A stretch of DNA of 16,219 nt from a virus. Its lineage: Duplodnaviria; Heunggongvirae; Uroviricota; Caudoviricetes. The notes beneath the pieces were generated by a model that saw nothing but the letters and a program-made list of their open reading frames with translations, made no database searches and had not been told where the DNA came from. Below, piece by piece: positions 8,324-16,219 of the stretch. The stretch's first letter is position 1; each line of letters opens with the position of its first letter. The stretch lies in IMG/VR virus record IMGVR_UViG_2537562231_000027. The stretch is one strand, 5' to 3'. A program made the translations under genes and the position numbers.

Positions 8324-8456
8324 AACAAAGCACCAATATTAACTTTATAAATCAAGAATACATCAAGTTTAAATTAACATGCAAGTTGCAAAAGGATCGA
8401 ATACACTAAAATCAAGTAAAGATTTATCCTTGTAAAGAAACCCACAGGATTTGGTC
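8324..8456. promoter_or_regulatory. Divergent immunity control region (OR-like) between cro-like and cI-like genes
   Basis: AT-rich. Contains three direct ATCAAG motifs, the palindrome TGCAAGTTGCA and the near-palindrome CAAGTAAAGATTTATCCTTG. Individual promoters not confidently resolved. Confidence 0.5.
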
Positions 8457-9146
8457 ATGAAGAACGTCAAAAACACGGAAAATCGAATAGCCGCGATGCT
8501 GAAAGCAAAAGGATGGACTCAGGCTCAACTGGCCCGCAAGTTAGGTGTGAGTGCGCAATCAGTGCAGTACTGGACAACAGGAAAAACATTTCCACGGAGT
8601 GATAAGCTCGCGCATTTATCAGAGATTAGCGGTTATCCACAATCCTGGTTCTTAGGTGAAGACTCCTCACCAACCTTTTCTTCGCAAGAGAAACACCAGA
8701 CAAGAACAGATAGCGTCGTATTTAATGTCCTTGATGTTGAGTTTAGTTGCGGTGATGGAACTCATGTCCGTGGTGACTTGATAGATGTAGTGCGCTCAAT
8801 AGAACTTGATCCTGAATATGCCCGACGTCTTGTTGGAAATCGGGCATTCAAAAATATAGAAATAGGTAACGCCAGAGGAGACAGTATGGCTCCCACAATC
8901 TCACCTGGCGACCTTCTTTTTCTTGATAAGACAGTAACTTATTTTGATGGCGATGGTATTTATGCATTTTGTTTTGATGGAGAATGCTACGTGAAAAGGC
9001 TTCAAAAAATTGGAAGCAAAATCATGGTGTTATCTGATAACCCCAATTATCAACCATGGAGCATCGAAAAAGAGGGGTTAGCTCTGCTTTATATCCAGTC
9101 TAAAGTGATCTCATCAGTACCATTCAACATAAACAGATTTGGTTAG
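8457..9146 (+). CDS. Prophage repressor, cI/LexA-like (N-terminal HTH, C-terminal S24 peptidase)
   Basis: HTH WTQAQLARKLGVSAQSVQYW; S24 motifs GDSMAPTISPGDLLFLDK and YVKRLQK (Ser/Lys dyad). ATG at 8457; the track start at 8451 is a TTG. Confidence 0.85.
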   Translation: MKNVKNTENRIAAMLKAKGWTQAQLARKLGVSAQSVQYWTTGKTFPRSDKLAHLSEISGYPQSWFLGEDSSPTFSSQEKHQTRTDSVVFNVLDVEFSCGDGTHVRGDLIDVVRSIELDPEYARRLVGNRAFKNIEIGNARGDSMAPTISPGDLLFLDKTVTYFDGDGIYAFCFDGECYVKRLQKIGSKIMVLSDNPNYQPWSIEKEGLALLYIQSKVISSVPFNINRFG

Positions 9147-10717: not shown

Positions 10718-10792
10718 ATGCAATACACTGAATTCCAGGCTGAAGCAACAGCCGGTAATGACTCCAACTTATTGATAGTGTTTTATGTTTAG
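10718..10792 (+). pseudogene. 5' fragment of IS1-interrupted gene D (12 native codons, then read-through into IS1)
   Basis: ATG at 10718 with SD GAGGAG 8 nt upstream; reading frame enters IS1 at 10754 and stops at 10790-10792. Deleting IS1 plus one target-duplication copy joins it in frame to the ORF at 11552. Confidence 0.6.
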
Positions 10793-11272
10793 ATAATGCC
10801 CGATGACTTTGTCATGCAGCTCCACCGATTTTGAGAACGACAGCGACTTCCGTCCCAGCCGTGCCAGGTGCTGCCTCAGATTCAGGTTATGCCGCTCAAT
10901 TCGCTGCGTATATCGCTTGCTGATTACGTGCAGCTTTCCCTTCAGGCGGGATTCATACAGCGGCCAGCCATCCGTCATCCATATCACCACGTCAAAGGGT
11001 GACAGCAGGCTCATAAGACGCCCCAGCGTCGCCATAGTGCGTTCACCGAATACGTGCGCAACAACCGTCTTCCGGAGCCTGTCATACGCGTAAAACAGCC
11101 AGCGCTGGCGCGATTTAGCCCCGACATAGCCCCACTGTTCGTCCATTTCCGCGCAGACGATGACGTCACTGCCCGGCTGTATGCGCGAGGTTACCGACTG
11201 CGGCCTGAGTTTTTTAAGTGACGTAAAATCGTGTTGAGGCCAACGCCCATAATGCGGGCGGTTGCCCGGCAT
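10769..11272 (-). CDS. insB: IS1 InsB reading frame (made as an InsAB' fusion by -1 frameshift)
   Basis: Canonical InsB-frame sequence ...[49 protein letters not shown]... Confidence 0.9.
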
Positions 11273-11466
11273 CCAACGCCATTCATGGCCATATCAATGA
11301 TTTTCTGGTGCGTACCGGGTTGAGAAGCGGTGTAAGTGAACTGCAGTTGCCATGTTTTACGGCAGTGAGAGCAGAGATAGCGCTGATGTCCGGCAGTGCT
11401 TTTGCCGTTACGCACCACCCCGTCAGTAGCTGAACAGGAGGGACAGCTGATAGAAACAGAAGCCAC
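11191..11466 (-). CDS. insA: IS1 InsA
   Basis: [43 protein letters not shown]... (91 aa); ends at the A6C frameshift motif. Confidence 0.9.
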
Positions 11467-11551
11467 TGGAGCACCTCAAAAACACCATCATACACTAAAT
11501 CAGTAAGTTGGCAGCATCACCGCAACAGCCACAGGTATACGAACTGGCAGT

Positions 11552-12067
11552 ATGACTATTGATTATCACGACGCAATCCGCCGTCTGGATGCAGGTGAAT
11601 TCGATCATCCTAATGTGAAAGGTTTGCAAATCCTTCAATGCCTCGCACAAGCCGACAATGCAGGATTACTGGGTAAACTCCCTGTTGAGATGAAGGTAGC
11701 CCAGTGGCGCTGGTTGTACGTGACGACATTCATCAACGAAGAAGAAAACAAGAATGGCACTATTGATATCCCAAACGAACACGGAACAACAGATCGCGCC
11801 GTAATATATAACGGGAAGCATGGGGTTATGACGATATATCCCGGCCCCATTCGGTTTGCCTTACAGCAGTATATTGAATGGAATTTAATTCAAAAATACG
11901 GCGAGGCAGAAGGAATGGGTAGAGCACTATTTCTTTATCAGAAAATGCTCATTACATACCCAGATAAAGGTTTCATTGTTTCAGACATGGGGCGAGAAGG
12001 GCTTGAACTCCTTCTGGATGAAATGATTAACGACCTGAATACTCATGGTATGCCAGAAGGCCAGTGA
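11552..12067 (+). CDS. 3' portion (171 codons) of IS1-interrupted hypothetical gene D
   Basis: Intact ORF from ATG 11552 with no SD of its own. In frame with the 10718 fragment once IS1 is removed; reconstructed product about 190 aa: MQYTEFQAEATATGIRTGSMTIDYHDAIRR... Confidence 0.6.
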   Translation: MTIDYHDAIRRLDAGEFDHPNVKGLQILQCLAQADNAGLLGKLPVEMKVAQWRWLYVTTFINEEENKNGTIDIPNEHGTTDRAVIYNGKHGVMTIYPGPIRFALQQYIEWNLIQKYGEAEGMGRALFLYQKMLITYPDKGFIVSDMGREGLELLLDEMINDLNTHGMPEGQ

Positions 12068-12263
12068 CACATTAAATATTAAGAGGAATATAATTCTTCC
12101 GTTTTTTACTAACCGTTTATATGAAAAGCAACCGTGACTTAAGCAGAGTAAAACTGCTTTTAATCCTTGCCACAGTACTGACAATAACAGAAATCATTAT
12201 TCTCTTTAGGTGATGCTGCCAACTTACTGATTTAGTGTATGATGGTGTTTTTGAGGTGCTCCA

Positions 12264-12539
12264 GTGGCTTCTGTTTCTATCAGCTGTCCCTCCTGTTCAG
12301 CTACTGACGGGGTGGTGCGTAACGGCAAAAGCACTGCCGGACATCAGCGCTATCTCTGCTCTCACTGCCGTAAAACATGGCAACTGCAGTTCACTTACAC
12401 CGCTTCTCAACCCGGTACGCACCAGAAAATCATTGATATGGCCATGAATGGCGTTGGATGCCGGGCAACCGCCCGCATTATGGGCGTTGGCCTCAACACG
12501 ATTTTCCGCCATTTAAAAAACTCAGGCCGCAGTCGGTAA
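12264..12539 (+). CDS. insA: IS1 InsA (variant)
   Basis: 91 aa; differs from copy 1 by L to F in ...[14 protein letters not shown]; A6C frameshift motif at 12515-12521. Confidence 0.9.
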
Positions 12540-12961
12540 CCTCGCGCATACAGCCGGGCAGTGACGTCATCGTCTGCGCGGAAATGGACGAACAGTGGGG
12601 CTACGTCGGTGCTAAATCACGTCAGCGCTGGCTGTTTTACGCGTATGACAGGATACGGAGGACAGTTGTGGCGCACGTTTTCGGTGAACGCACTCTGGCC
12701 ACACTGGAGCGTCTTCTGAGCCTGCTGTCGGCCTTTGAGGTCGTGGTATGGATGACGGATGGCTGGCCGCTGTATGAATCACGCCTGAAGGGAAAGCTGC
12801 ACGTTATCAGCAAGCGTTACACTCAGCGCATTGAGCGACATAATCTGAATCTGAGACAACATCTGGCAAGGCTGGGACGGAAGTCGCTGTCGTTCTCAAA
12901 ATCGGTGGAGCTGCATGACAAGGTCATCGGGCATTATCTGAACATAAAACACTATCAGTAA
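12458..12961 (+). CDS. insB: IS1 InsB reading frame (variant)
   Basis: InsB frame with substitutions relative to copy 1 (IRR versus [22 protein letters not shown] versus [19 protein letters not shown]). Confidence 0.9.
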
Positions 12962-13028
12962 GTTGGAGTCACTACCTTCTCTTTATTGCGCTGTCTGTCA
13001 GTTAAAAATATCGGGATACCACATACCA

Positions 13029-13217
13029 ATGAAACTGTATTTCACAATAGTAATTTTACTGGCAATTATCGCATGCATTTACGGATTACTCGTTCCGTTC
13101 CTTATATCCATGAAGGATACGATAGCAGTTATTTCTGGCTTTGCACTGGCGTTTCTGACCCCGCCCTGCATTTATGCCATTTACAAGGGTCTTTCTTTCA
13201 CTAAGGATAAAAAATGA
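13029..13217 (+). CDS. Small integral membrane protein (62 aa, two predicted TM helices)
   Basis: MKLYFTIVILLAIIACIYGLLVPFLISMKDTIAVISGFALAFLTPPCIYAIY...; stop overlaps the lipoprotein start (ATGA). The track ORF begins at a TTG inside IS1 and was trimmed. Confidence 0.55.
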   Translation: MKLYFTIVILLAIIACIYGLLVPFLISMKDTIAVISGFALAFLTPPCIYAIYKGLSFTKDKK

Positions 13218-14041
13218 AAAAATTTATTTTTGCTTTAGCCATTGTTCTGCCGACCATTGGCCTTGTCGGCTGCGATCGCGTTGAACCCGGTAATGTTGGC
13301 ATCAAAGTAAATAAACTGGGCGACGATAAAGGCGTCGGTGAGGTGGTCGGTGTTGGTCGCTACTGGACTGGCTGGAATACTGAAGTTTACATCTTCCCAA
13401 CCTTCAAACAAATGAAGACCTACGATGAGCCGTTCAGCTTCCAGATGAGTGACGGCACAACCATTGGCTATCACATCGGTGTTGCCTACAAAGTTGATCC
13501 ATCCAAAGTTACCACGGTGTTTCAGACCTACCGCAAAGGCGTGGATGACATTACCGACACTGACCTGCGCCAGAAGATCGCCGACGCACTCAATCGACTG
13601 GCCAGCAAAATGACCACTGACAAATTTATCGACGGCGGGAAGTCTGAACTACTGGATGCAGCTCTTAAAGACATTCAGGCAGAAATGACGCCCATAGGTA
13701 TTCAGGTAATGAGTCTCTCATATGTGGGTAAGCCGGAGTACCCGCCAACCGTTATCGACAGCATTAATGCCAAAGTCACGGCGAACCAGAAAACCCTGCA
13801 ACGCGAACAGGAAGTAAAACAGCGCGAAGCGGAAGCTAACATGTTGCGCGCGGAAGCTGCCGGACAGGCAGATGCGATTCGCACAAAAGCCCAGGCCGAG
13901 GCCGATGCTATTCGTTTACGCGGTGAAGCTCTGCGCCAGAACCCTGGCGTCATGGAGCTGGAAGCCATCAACAAGTGGAACGGTACTCTGCCGCAATACA
14001 TGACCAGCGGTGCCAATACACCATTTATCCAGATTAAATAA
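13214..14041 (+). CDS. SPFH/band-7 (prohibitin/HflC-like) domain lipoprotein
   Basis: Signal peptide with lipobox LVGC (Cys20) and Asp at +2, predicting inner-membrane retention. SPFH-like core and Ala/Glu-rich coiled-coil tail. SD AAGGA 7 nt upstream. Confidence 0.85.
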   Translation: MKKFIFALAIVLPTIGLVGCDRVEPGNVGIKVNKLGDDKGVGEVVGVGRYWTGWNTEVYIFPTFKQMKTYDEPFSFQMSDGTTIGYHIGVAYKVDPSKVTTVFQTYRKGVDDITDTDLRQKIADALNRLASKMTTDKFIDGGKSELLDAALKDIQAEMTPIGIQVMSLSYVGKPEYPPTVIDSINAKVTANQKTLQREQEVKQREAEANMLRAEAAGQADAIRTKAQAEADAIRLRGEALRQNPGVMELEAINKWNGTLPQYMTSGANTPFIQIK

Positions 14042-14069
14042 CTTACACGCCCGGCAAACCGCCGGGTTA

Positions 14070-14453
14070 ATGGAAAATCAGATGAACAACCAGAATACTC
14101 AACCGCAAATAATGAACTATGACCCGAATCTGACGTCGTGCGGACGCATGGCAAAACAAACCGTTCGATTAACTTTCGGACTATGGGAATACCGCGAAAC
14201 ATTCGAAGTTACTGTCGGCGGCAATCTGACCGGACTGGATGTTATCAATTGCGCTATTGAAAGCCTGTACGCAACGCTGCCTTATGAAGAAGTCCTGGAT
14301 GAGCGCACAGGGAAAACGGATATCATGGCCACCATTAATATTGGCGAACTGATATGCCAGGATGAAGACCTGTCCGGGGAACTCTGGCTTGCCGGGATGC
14401 TTATCTCAGCAGAAATTATCAGTATTGAACCCGCTACAAACATACGGCTCTGA
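14070..14453 (+). CDS. Hypothetical acidic protein (about 128 aa)
   Basis: Track ORF trimmed to the first ATG after the lipoprotein stop; start uncertain (ATG at 14082 also possible). A GC-rich hairpin lies just upstream. Confidence 0.55.
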   Translation: MENQMNNQNTQPQIMNYDPNLTSCGRMAKQTVRLTFGLWEYRETFEVTVGGNLTGLDVINCAIESLYATLPYEEVLDERTGKTDIMATINIGELICQDEDLSGELWLAGMLISAEIISIEPATNIRL

Positions 14454-14484
14454 AGTTCTCACTATTCAGAGAGCAGGAGAAAAA

Positions 14485-14601
14485 ATGTTCGCTCTGATTA
14501 ATCAGGGACAACTGTATACCGACAGTGCCGGTTACCCGGTAAAAATTGTTCGCTGCATAAACAACACCGTGTTGTACAGAAGATGTGAAGCGAATGTTTG
14601 A
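14485..14601 (+). CDS. Hypothetical small protein (38 aa)
   Basis: ATG with strong SD AGGAGA 5-6 nt upstream; track ORF trimmed from an upstream alternative start. Confidence 0.4.
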   Translation: MFALINQGQLYTDSAGYPVKIVRCINNTVLYRRCEANV

Positions 14602-14644: not shown

Positions 14645-14899
14645 ATGCAGACAATCATCTATCAGATAACCCCCAGCAAATGGTGTACGGAGAGAGTCCT
14701 CATTGCATCAACAGGGCTAAAGCCTGGCACCATCGAGCGAGCCAGAAGAAAGTCATGGATGCAGGGAAAAGAATACCGCCATTACGCTGTAGAAGGTGAT
14801 CCGGGGCATTACAGTGAATGCCTGTACAACATCGAAGAAATTATGCGATGGATCGAAAACCAGAAACAACCAGGTGCCAAAAATGCAAGTTCCGGTTAA
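14645..14899 (+). CDS. Excisionase-like protein (DUF1233-type putative Xis)
   Basis: ITPSKWCTERVLIASTGLKPGTIERARRKSWMQGKEYRHY resembles excisionase-like proteins found upstream of prophage integrases. SD GAGG 5 nt upstream. Confidence 0.7.
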   Translation: MQTIIYQITPSKWCTERVLIASTGLKPGTIERARRKSWMQGKEYRHYAVEGDPGHYSECLYNIEEIMRWIENQKQPGAKNASSG

Positions 14900-14932: not shown

Positions 14933-16219
14933 ATGAGTAACGCATCATACCCGACAGGCGTTGAAAACCATGGAGGATCACTCCGTATATGGTTTCACTA
15001 TAATGGCAAACGTGTCAGAGAAAACCTCGGTGTTCCTGACACCGCCAAAAACCGGAAGATCGCTGGTGAGCTTCGCACTTCTGTTTGTTTTGCAATCAGA
15101 ATGGGGAGTTTCGACTACGCCGCGCAGTTCCCTAATTCCCCTAACCTGAAACACTTTGGTCTGGGAAAAAGAGAGATAACCGTTAAGGCACTTTCGGAAA
15201 AATGGTTGGACCTTAAGAAAATTGAGATTTGTGCGAATGCACTTAACCGTTACCAGTCAGTAATTAAAAACATGTTACCAATGTTAGGTGAAAAAAAACT
15301 GGTTTCATCCATAACAAAAGAGGATTTACTTTTCGTAAGGAGAGATTTGTTGACCGGTTACCAAAAGCTTTCTAATGGAAAGACTTCTTCCATAAAAGGG
15401 CGCTCAGTGGTCACGGTAAACTACTATATGACAACCATAGCTGGAATGTTTCAATTTGCAACAGATAATGGTTATACCTCAGGAAACCCATTTAACGGTC
15501 TGGCTCCCTTAAAAAAGTCCAAGGTAAAACCAGATCCTCTCACCCGTGACGAATTTATTCGTTTTATTGAGGCCTGCCGTCATCAACAAACAAAAAACCT
15601 GTGGATTCTCGCTGTATACACGGGTATTCGTCACGGGGAGTTGGTATCGCTGGCATGGGAAGATATAGACCTTAAAGCAAGGACTATAACCATCCGTAGA
15701 AATTATACAAAACTTGGCGAATTCACTCCACCAAAAACCGATGCTGGCACCGGAAGGACAATTCATCTGGTTCAACCAGCTATTGATGCTCTTAAAAGCC
15801 AGGCGGAAATGACCATGCTTGGAAAGCAACATTCTGTAGAGGTAAAGCAGAGGGAATATGGGAGAACAGCTGTGCATAAATGTACTTTTGTTTTTAGCCC
15901 TCAGGTAATAAAACAGCAGCAGTTGTCTGGACCTCACTACAAAGTTGACTCCATCAGGGAGTCATGGACAAGTATCTTAAAACGCGCAGGTCTGAGACAC
16001 AGAAAATCGTACCAATCCAGGCATACTTATGCATGCTGGTCACTTGCCGCTGGAGCTAATCCTAGTTTTATCGCAAGCCAGATGGGCCACACAAACGCAC
16101 AAATGGTATTCAATGTTTACGGAGCATGGATGAAAGACAACAATCACGAACAGATAGAACTCCTTAACAAAAGACTATCTGAAAGTGTCCCATGTATGCC
16201 CCATAAGAAAGTGGGGTAA
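14933..16219 (+). CDS. int: Tyrosine site-specific integrase (lambda Int family)
   Basis: C-terminal catalytic region includes LAVYTGIRHGELVSLAWEDIDL, HTYACWSLAAGANPSFIASQMGHTN and VYGAWM (catalytic Tyr); N-terminal arm-binding-like domain. Stop codon is the last triplet of the window. Confidence 0.9.
   Translation: MSNASYPTGVENHGGSLRIWFHYNGKRVRENLGVPDTAKNRKIAGELRTSVCFAIRMGSFDYAAQFPNSPNLKHFGLGKREITVKALSEKWLDLKKIEICANALNRYQSVIKNMLPMLGEKKLVSSITKEDLLFVRRDLLTGYQKLSNGKTSSIKGRSVVTVNYYMTTIAGMFQFATDNGYTSGNPFNGLAPLKKSKVKPDPLTRDEFIRFIEACRHQQTKNLWILAVYTGIRHGELVSLAWEDIDLKARTITIRRNYTKLGEFTPPKTDAGTGRTIHLVQPAIDALKSQAEMTMLGKQHSVEVKQREYGRTAVHKCTFVFSPQVIKQQQLSGPHYKVDSIRESWTSILKRAGLRHRKSYQSRHTYACWSLAAGANPSFIASQMGHTNAQMVFNVYGAWMKDNNHEQIELLNKRLSESVPCMPHKKVG

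Follow-up and report, generated by a model that had tools for sequence, protein, structure and literature searches.

Why would a bacteriophage carry a gene for an SPFH (Band 7) protein that overlaps a much smaller membrane protein gene, when the contents and purpose of the cellular SPFH cages (HflK/C, prohibitin, stomatin, erlin and flotillin), structurally a busy field of study, are themselves still debated? The question is raised by one locus in a 16,219-nucleotide stretch of DNA, referred to here as the window, which is the IMG/VR virus record IMGVR_UViG_2537562231_000027 (Duplodnaviria; Heunggongvirae; Uroviricota; Caudoviricetes). The locus lies upstream of the phage excisionase and integrase genes and encodes a 62-amino acid (aa) inner-membrane protein with two transmembrane (TM) helices, hereafter the 2-TM protein, followed by a 275-aa SPFH lipoprotein. 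An earlier note on this DNA had described both genes and their ATGA overlap, and all three features are present where it placed them. The main new result of the present analysis is that the 2-TM gene is a near-obligate partner of the SPFH gene, in temperate and in strictly lytic phages.

A predicted hairpin protein as the near-obligate partner of an SPFH gene

The 62-aa protein (MKLYFTIVILLAIIACIYGLLVPFLISMKDTIAVISGFALAFLTPPCIYAIYKGLSFTKDKK) contains two hydrophobic stretches joined by the short loop ISMKDT. Its charges are a single basic residue at the N-terminus (K2) and the C-terminal tail KGLSFTKDKK; because of these charges, the positive-inside rule predicts a helical hairpin with both termini in the cytoplasm (N-in/C-in), and the conserved turn P23-x-L-I26-S27-M-K-D-T31 is predicted to be periplasmic. 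The open reading frame (ORF) is a real gene, since it is matched by the PHROGs profile phrog_1130 ('membrane protein') with an E value of 2e-23, has 35 homologous clusters, keeps seven invariant residues (Y4, Y18, P23, I26, S27, V34 and G37) in alignment A1, whose copies are 18-92% identical, and shows a ratio of non-synonymous to synonymous substitution rates (dN/dS) of 0.11 against the Pantoea copy. Pfam contains no domain for the protein at E<=0.1 and none for 16 of its relatives at E<=1.

The Shine-Dalgarno sequence of the SPFH gene, AAGGA, sits within the 3′ end of the 2-TM gene, whose stop codon overlaps the SPFH start codon. The two genes also overlap, or are at most 13 nt apart, in P88, RCS47, Erwinia S6, Serratia Spe5P4, Pseudomonas D14B, Xanthomonas PB119 and Agrobacterium OLIVR5. 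In the P2-like phage P88 the pair is annotated as gp11 and gp12 with a 4-nt overlap, and in the P1-like RCS47 the 2-TM ORF is unannotated. Adjacent, co-oriented genes match phrog_1130 and phrog_200 in the window, and the same adjacency is found in eight other phages from different families; phrog_1130, a profile independent of this work, recognises the partner in P88, RCS47, Erwinia S6, Serratia Spe5P4, Cronobacter EspYZU08, Xanthomonas PB119, Agrobacterium OLIVR5 and Pseudomonas D14B.

The 2-TM gene lies immediately 5′ of the SPFH gene in all enterobacterial loci except two, L086 (Shigella flexneri SFBU1023) and L087 (Escherichia coli ECMA0423), where IS1-like reading frames in a gap of ~770 bp (~2230-2997) split the two genes; the pair appears to have been hit there by IS1 independently and at a different site from the insertion near the pair in the window, described below. 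In 109 further loci, grouped at ~80% identity into 49 SPFH clusters, the 2-TM gene is directly upstream in 36 clusters. A hidden Markov model (HMM) of the partner, built from separate 2-TM proteins together with the N-terminal parts of fusion proteins, was used to scan the fetched loci: among 4577 ORF segments it found 96 matches, 90 of which adjoin an SPFH gene on its upstream side. Divergent two-TM ORFs with a P-x-L-(I/V)-S-like turn are also located directly upstream of the SPFH gene in Sutterella loci and in loci L102, L103, L114 and L135.

The partner is in some lineages part of the same polypeptide. In-frame 2-TM-SPFH fusions were found in ~18 of the 150 best representative clusters (P0160, P0165, P0178, P0186 and ~14 other representatives; loci L195-L199), and four of them were verified as real ORFs on contigs. 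Between the 2-TM module and the SPFH part, every fusion retains a hydrophobic, signal-like segment and a lipobox Cys. These fusions are Rosetta-stone evidence pointing to a physical partnership, and they would place the C-terminus of the hairpin in the cytoplasm and the SPFH part in the periplasm. Their arrangement suggests a precursor that is cut in two by signal peptidase II. The lipobox persists even in proteins that already possess TM anchors, which suggests that it is important for the SPFH part to be released and lipidated. The verified fusion genes sit amid small same-strand genes, as is typical for phage early regions; an Acb2/Tad1-type anti-defence-type gene is two genes away from one of them (L196), and a PD-(D/E)XK nuclease gene is beside another. 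The tight coupling that the earlier note had proposed for the two genes is thus upheld by conserved synteny, by the fusions and by the positions of the HMM matches.

An SPFH lipoprotein with the architecture of cage-forming proteins

The larger protein is matched by Pfam Band_7 (PF01145) over residues 22-208 (E 8.2e-31; 107.8 bits against a cut-off of 23.6) and by phrog_200 ('lipoprotein'; E 4e-114). Its AlphaFold2 (AF2) model, with a mean predicted local distance difference test score (pLDDT) of 88.5, consists of an SPFH domain, a 65-residue helix (178-242) and a further helix (244-254); the C-terminal tail, modelled with low confidence, holds the motif K-W255-x-G257-x-L-P260, in which W255, G257 and P260 are conserved in the alignments. 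A search of solved structures with the family profile places prohibitin 1/2 first (E 2e-9), followed by HflK, QmcA and HflC. Foldseek aligns the model over its full length with chains from the cages of HflC, HflK, PHB1/2, erlin, stomatin and flotillin, at E values of 1e-13 to 1e-8, and also with QmcA. The SPFH assignment of the earlier note is therefore borne out by profile search, predicted fold and matches in the Protein Data Bank (PDB) alike. Helix 178-242 of the model is the counterpart of the coiled-coil helix that forms the wall in SPFH cages.

The N-terminus, MKKFIFALAIVLPTIGLVGC followed by DR, comprises a basic n-region (MKK), an h-region (FIFALAIVLPTIG) and the lipobox LVGC, which fits the pattern [LVI][ASTVI][GAS]C; Asp occupies position +2 and Arg position +3. 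Cys20 is invariant in the 45-sequence alignment A2, which reaches down to 30% identity, and likewise in alignment A3. A simple lipobox is found in 93 of ~135 full-length SPFH representatives, and the ~15-20 representatives that have no Cys carry instead a plain, uncleaved N-terminal TM anchor. The lipoprotein call made in the earlier note is supported by this canonical lipobox and invariant Cys; processing by Lgt, LspA and Lnt is predicted, and the mature protein is predicted to face the periplasm. Under the +2 rule of E. coli, Asp at +2 retains a lipoprotein in the inner membrane. Asp21 is kept in the copies from E. coli, Salmonella, Pantoea, Kluyvera, Yersinia and a Serratia phage.

Database labels for this protein are uneven. 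In RefSeq it is already named 'SPFH domain-containing protein'. The label 'serine protease', given in many GenBank phage records, was rejected: the protein has no protease domain, and the only hint is a weak match to phrog_11227 (E 6.5e-4). Other unsupported single labels in GenBank are 'transferase', 'RIIB lysis inhibitor', 'putative transposase' and 'outer membrane lipoprotein', and records with a misannotated SPFH lipoprotein include LC5678xx, AJ298298 and HQ728266. An outer-membrane lipoprotein of the Cor/Llp/Bor type was also considered and set aside, as there is no similarity to these proteins and Asp at +2 indicates the inner membrane. A 166-aa antisense ORF (13702-14202, minus strand) lies inside the SPFH gene opposite the region encoding the Ala-rich helix, and is probably a compositional artefact of that region.

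Distribution and evolution of the cassette

The pair module is 100% identical, and uninterrupted, in chromosomes of Shiga toxin-producing E. coli (STEC), where the prophage lies beside mlrA (yehV). Identity falls to 97.8% in eleven Stx2 (Stx2a) phages and to 95% in phiP27 (L05). The SPFH gene as such is far more widely spread, with 718 clusters at 90% identity (E<=1e-5) and 3001 clusters at 50% identity (E<=1e-3); homologues are found in 648 of 50,697 phage records (~1%). Of 5426 complete E. coli genomes, 535 (~10%) contain nucleotide matches to 13029-14041; most of these matches cover the SPFH core only, and 198 of the places matched are on plasmids. Among plasmid records, 673 contain matches, of which 630 are non-mobilizable and about 90-110 kb in size. 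Plasmid carriers come from Yersinia pestis (at the size of pMT1), Citrobacter, Salmonella, Klebsiella and E. coli O104:H4, and one is the 108-kb contig of Y. pestis NCTC5923 (L093); the non-mobilizable carriers of ~100-110 kb are presumably phage-plasmids. Locus searches that started from single distant proteins found almost nothing, and alignment A3 retrieved only near-identical copies from viral contigs; A3 and A4 otherwise worked.

The pair is also present in virulent lineages, including the Schitoviridae (Erwinia S6 and Xanthomonas PB119), the Vequintavirinae (Cronobacter EspYZU08 and Escherichia phage 18-1-2), Myosmarvirus (Serratia Spe5P4) and the Pootjesviridae (Agrobacterium OLIVR5). 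Remoter SPFH homologues are found in Bruynoghevirus, Ounavirinae, Kayvirus, phiCbK-like phages and haloarchaeal viruses, those of Kayvirus and the haloviruses being only 24-27% identical. In temperate elements the cassette is placed between cox and a replication gene (P88), upstream of ban (RCS47), or 3′ of cI and 5′ of xis-int (the window), positions from which we infer that it belongs to early lytic operons.

The two halves of the cassette evolve very differently. The SPFH core has a dN/dS of 0.04-0.08, and such strong purifying selection fits a conserved host target or assembly constraints better than an arms race. When the window is compared with P88, non-synonymous differences amount to 4% in the mature SPFH protein (pN 0.044) and to 56% in the 2-TM partner (pN 0.56). 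Alignment at the DNA level with the P2-like and P1-like copies sets in precisely at the lipobox (13262-13267), and the same breakpoint recurs in hundreds of E. coli records (query positions 234-243). Across lambdoid, P2-like and P1-like elements the mature core retains 85-92% DNA identity; the head formed by the 2-TM protein and the signal peptide cannot be aligned as DNA and is 18-26% identical as protein. The lipobox thus marks a recombination boundary, at which one conserved SPFH core is joined to several very different heads.

Relation to known SPFH systems

The phage protein resembles HflK and HflC of the E. coli HflK/HflC-FtsH complex (PDB 7vhp, 7wi3 and 9cz2) in its SPFH domain, its long wall-forming helix and its C-terminal cap region, as well as in its predicted periplasm-facing position and inner-membrane anchor; the Foldseek alignments with HflC (E 1.5e-13) and HflK (E 3e-13) span the whole model. 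It differs from them in that a single gene replaces the K/C paralogue pair, a lipid anchor replaces the N-terminal TM helix, and a separate 2-TM partner is present; identity is only 14-21%. An HflK or HflC equivalog was ruled out by NCBIfam scores far below the cut-offs (24.6 bits against 134.4 for HflC, TIGR01932; 22.7 against 159.4 for HflK, TIGR01933), by the single gene and by the cleavable lipoprotein signal peptide.

Prohibitins PHB1 and PHB2 (PDB 8rrh and 9o9z) are the best sequence relatives among solved structures, are of similar size (~270-300 aa) and have an equivalent topology, facing the intermembrane space. Unlike the phage protein, prohibitin is eukaryotic, forms a heterodimeric ring, is TM-anchored and has no small partner gene, and identity is ~15%. 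In the gene arrangement there is a parallel with SPFH-NfeD operons such as QmcA-YbbJ (PDB 8z5g), where the SPFH gene is likewise translationally linked to the gene of a small membrane protein and the partner is expected in the membrane patch beneath the cage. The NfeD-like pairing suggested in the earlier note holds as far as an adjacent, co-oriented membrane protein gene goes, and is an analogy only, as the phage partner has no NfeD (PF01957) or other Pfam domain; with 62 aa and two TM helices it is too short for an oligonucleotide/oligosaccharide-binding fold (OB-fold). QmcA faces the cytoplasm, whereas the phage SPFH protein is predicted to be exported and lipidated.

Kin of the SPFH lipoprotein have been noted in phages before. 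They include MbpS of Kayvirus, ORF139c of the T4-like phage RB43 together with ORF098c of 44RR and ORF064c of Aeh1, AH14b_p02 of a Pseudomonas phage and a lipoprotein of the N4-like phage GIB1. All share the SPFH/Band 7 assignment, several were called lipoproteins, and their function has only been speculated on; reports on them make no mention of a 2-TM partner or of fusion forms. For the T4-like phages the SPFH assignment comes from Pfam matches (PMC1524935). In Kayvirus, mbpS neighbours the gene of a small, holin-like membrane protein in the vicinity of lysK and holA, and a role in helping secretion was speculated (PMC7150955). A role in lysogeny like that of HflKC was speculated for another prophage SPFH gene (PMC4936722). 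A full-text literature search found no functional study of the phage SPFH/2-TM family.

Two further identities were considered for members of the pair. A class II holin is not indicated, as the 2-TM protein family matches no holin family at E<=1 and the neighbours of the pair are DUF5406, xis and int. A two-component spanin was rejected, as it does not fit a 275-aa lipoprotein with an SPFH fold, a membrane protein that lacks a periplasmic coiled coil and a pair located far from the lysis genes.

Possible functions of the cassette

The preferred reading, put forward tentatively and at somewhat less than an even chance, is that the pair is a phage cassette which builds a small prohibitin/HflKC-type, periplasm-facing assembly on the inner membrane and is active in lytic development. 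Its structural level, a periplasm-facing SPFH cage with a dedicated hairpin subunit, is highly probable; any specific host target, FtsH included, would be doubtful at best. In this mechanism the 62-aa protein would insert as an N-in/C-in helical hairpin, and the 275-aa protein would be exported, lipidated at Cys20 and cut by signal peptidase II, with Asp at +2 holding the enterobacterial copies in the inner membrane. The SPFH domain, the long helix and the C-terminal motif would then drive oligomerisation into a ring or cage, of which the hairpin would be the integral-membrane subunit. Expression would fall in the early lytic programme, from the cI-side leftward operon in the window and from early or middle regions in virulent phages. 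The assembly would act on the host inner membrane during phage development, most likely by corralling or shielding an inner-membrane machine, for which an FtsH-type protease would be the best candidate by analogy with the two closest relatives. As temperate and strictly lytic phages alike carry the pair, its role is probably that of a membrane scaffold in the infection phase and not that of a switch for lysogeny. A bolder version of the same idea, which we consider rather unlikely to hold in full, is that of an undescribed and widespread two-component 'mini-prohibitin' device that would act early in infection, capturing FtsH or a transport or entry complex, and would be made in ~1 in 8 lineages as a single precursor cut by signal peptidase II.

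Several observations weigh against the scaffold reading. The inner-membrane anchor that the earlier note predicted from Asp at +2 stands for this copy; the residue is not conserved across the family, being Glu in E. coli phage 18-1-2 and the Cronobacter phage (Vequintavirinae), Tyr in Erwinia S6, and Ser or Thr in most others, including Ser in Pseudomonas and Xanthomonas phages. Since Asp is not conserved, canonical E. coli sorting would place some relatives in the outer membrane. That the complex would nevertheless assemble at the inner membrane is argued from the inner-membrane partner and from the TM-anchored representatives that have no Cys. The partner itself is displaced in some loci (two genes off in Pseudomonas phage TL, 900 nt away in L155, and downstream in L162 and L190), and among the loci scanned it was not found at Erwinia phiEa104, in a Cytophagales group or at L104. 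Oligomerisation is read from the model of a monomer, and nothing ties the SPFH lipoprotein specifically to FtsH. Around the cassette, both in the window and in a STEC copy that is uninterrupted, promoter and terminator scans picked up sites no more often than in shuffled sequence, so that the timing of expression follows from gene position only. According to a 2026 paper, the reason why phages carry this lipoprotein 'remains unclear' (PMC13239085), and a prophage HflK/C-like protein of Pasteurella multocida, PM0222 (OAZ06802.1), which may not belong to the phage SPFH family, was detected in the lysogen and in outer-membrane vesicles (OMVs) (PMC9872710).

The distribution that argues for an infection-phase role would also suit superinfection exclusion, in which the SPFH assembly and hairpin would block an inner-membrane step in the DNA entry of later phages, since exclusion is useful to virulent and temperate phages alike. 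Such a function would also agree with a self-contained cassette that moves among lambdoid, P2-like, P1-like and SSU5/pMT1-like elements, and the 2-TM partner and signal peptide, which diverge far faster than the SPFH core between the window and P88, could be the specificity part. The pair may be likened in this respect to T4 Imm and P22 SieA, which are small inner-membrane exclusion proteins. Exclusion is still judged unlikely. The proteins have no homology to known exclusion or defence proteins: PADLOC-DB v2 returned no family at E<=0.1 for the 2-TM, SPFH, DUF5406 and DUF4222-remnant proteins, and Pfam has nothing for the partner, so the cassette is not a recognised defence system. For an abortive-infection effector, which the earlier note had named beside exclusion, the PADLOC scan and the literature search likewise yielded neither support nor contradiction. 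The strong purifying selection on the SPFH core is unlike that of typical arms-race proteins, a cage would cover only a tiny area of membrane, and no experimental report of exclusion was found in the literature. A mimic of HflK/C that modulates the degradation by FtsH of CII/CIII-type regulators or of Xis, and so tunes the lysis-lysogeny decision or excision, is close to what the earlier note had suggested. HflK/C and prohibitin share the predicted topology of the phage protein and are its nearest relatives, the gene is directly upstream of xis-int in the cI-side operon, and the same idea has been raised for another prophage SPFH gene (PMC4936722). As a general function this is not supported: obligately lytic families, for which no lysogeny decision arises, commonly carry the pair, the scores are far below the HflK and HflC equivalog cut-offs, a single lipid-anchored protein stands in place of a TM-anchored K/C heteropair, and the regulatory settings differ in P2-like and P1-like elements. 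It is accordingly given very little probability.

Protection of the membrane or control of lysis timing, with the cage stabilising the energised inner membrane or restraining a membrane-active phage protein, also has only a slim chance of being correct. The partner resembles a class II holin in general terms (62 aa, N-in/C-in, two TM helices and a basic C-terminus) and SPFH proteins are generally linked with membrane integrity, but the holin family search was negative at E<=1; the setting of Kayvirus mbpS, close to lysK, holA and a small membrane protein that resembles a holin (PMC7150955), has no counterpart in the Gram-negative phages examined, where the pair is not beside lysis genes. Finally, the lipoprotein could be a surface or virulence factor of lysogenic conversion, made by the lysogen, exported in vesicles and acting as a TLR2 agonist in the animal host. 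The cassette is frequent in STEC prophages, and the HflK/C-like protein of the P. multocida prophage, found in OMVs, signals via TLR1/2, its deletion attenuating virulence in mice (PMC9872710). This explanation is extremely improbable for the phage pair. The pair is widespread in virulent and environmental phages that have no animal host, PM0222 may not belong to the phage SPFH family, Asp at +2 predicts retention in the inner membrane for the copy studied here, and any lipoprotein activates TLR2.

Genomic setting of the pair in the window

The window comes from a phiP27/Stx-type lambdoid prophage, of which it represents the immunity-to-attachment end. Its minus-strand genes encode a DnaB-like helicase, a DnaC-like loader, Rha/Ash regulators and a Cro-like protein; on the plus strand a CI-like repressor gene (8451-9146) is followed by a same-strand run that ends in xis and int. 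The features discussed are collected in Table 1.

Table 1. Coordinates of the 2-TM/SPFH pair, its parts and its neighbours in the window
Feature	Position	Strand	Basis or remarks
62-aa two-TM inner-membrane protein gene (phrog_1130)	13029-13217	+	ATG-to-stop ORF; RefSeq hypothetical protein WP_000780790.1
Translational coupling signals	13203-13217	+	AAGGA Shine-Dalgarno 13203-13207; ATGA stop/start overlap 13214-13217
275-aa SPFH/Band-7 lipoprotein gene (phrog_200)	13214-14041	+	Pfam Band_7, phrog_200, AF2
Lipoprotein signal peptide MKKFIFALAIVLPTIG with lipobox L17-V18-G19-C20 (13262-13273), then Asp21 at +2	13214-13273	+	
SPFH (Band 7) domain, residues 22-208	13277-13837	+	Pfam envelope; AF2 beta-sheet and helices over residues 20-175
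Long Ala/Glu/Gln-rich helix, residues 178-242	13745-13939	+	AF2 secondary structure
GC-rich hairpin, 7-bp stem, 5-nt loop	14049-14067	+	Just 3′ of SPFH stop; RNA fold -14.1 kcal/mol, z -2.4
DUF5406 gene, acidic protein, isoelectric point 4.1	14070-14453	+	Pfam E 2e-22; alternative starts 14082, 14112
Truncated 5′ DUF4222 (PF13973) remnant, 38 codons	14485-14601	+	Pfam profile positions 2-31 of 53; RefSeq pseudogene; strong Shine-Dalgarno AGGAG
Excisionase gene (DUF1233; RefSeq xisR)	14645-14899	+	Pfam; directly downstream
Tyrosine integrase gene	14933-16219	+	Pfam; RefSeq integrase beside mlrA
IS1 copy (insA 12264-12539, insB frame 12458-12961)	12209-12976	+	Alignment to uninterrupted Stx2_95 phage
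Second IS1 copy	10754-11521	-	Own 9-bp target duplication GCAACAGCC

The GC-rich hairpin that follows the SPFH gene has no U-tract and was missed by the terminator scan, and is thus not a canonical intrinsic terminator; it could stabilise the transcript or terminate it weakly, separating the pair from the DUF5406 gene. The two genes that come next had been described in the earlier note as small and unknown; one belongs to DUF5406, and the other is a truncated DUF4222 gene of which only the 5′ part remains. The acidic DUF5406 protein, given there as 128 aa, is 127 aa when started at 14070; the equivalent of the RefSeq start, 14082, gives 123 aa, and the family consensus MNYDPNL begins at Met15 (window 14112). 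An alpha/beta fold is predicted for it, which has no convincing relative in the PDB. DUF5406 is an independent module, because it is found elsewhere without any SPFH gene, as in Halomonas phage phiHAP-1, Escherichia phage ASU11 and Pseudomonas jumbo phages. The DUF4222 remnant is likewise independent and outside the pair. The earlier note had read it as a 38-aa protein with a strong Shine-Dalgarno sequence; the AGGAG is present, and what follows corresponds to a 79-aa DUF4222 gene cut off after its first 33 codons, and is a pseudogene. The phiP27 homologue is intact at 79 aa, its first 33 residues being identical to the remnant. At a mosaic junction inside this ORF (14583/14584), similarity to phiP27 falls from 95% to 68%, a drop which indicates that the ORF was truncated when a different xis-int module was joined.

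The IS1 copy nearest the pair, which had gone unmentioned in the earlier note, is bounded by a 9-bp target duplication (TTCTCTTTA) at 12200-12208 and 12977-12985, and ends 52 bp before the ATG of the 2-TM gene. IS1 insertions are classically polar, and for this reason the pair is probably cut off here from upstream transcription and poorly expressed or silenced. The two inverted IS1 copies flank a phrog_1515 gene (11552-12067), the 5′ end of which was removed by the insertion at 10754-11521. This two-IS1 arrangement is absent from all complete E. coli genomes of the collection.

Significance

The copy in the window is common cargo that is already annotated, and it is probably silenced by IS1. 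In databases the pair is frequent and already annotated; biologically, it belongs with the SPFH-partner operons as a variant yet to be characterised. In this compact phage version, one lipoprotein and one 62-aa hairpin are carried by Stx phages, P1-like elements, pMT1/SSU5-like phage-plasmids, and N4-like and rV5-like virulent phages. Together with its natural fusions, the partner offers a minimal system in which to probe how SPFH cages act on the bacterial inner membrane, and why viruses need them.

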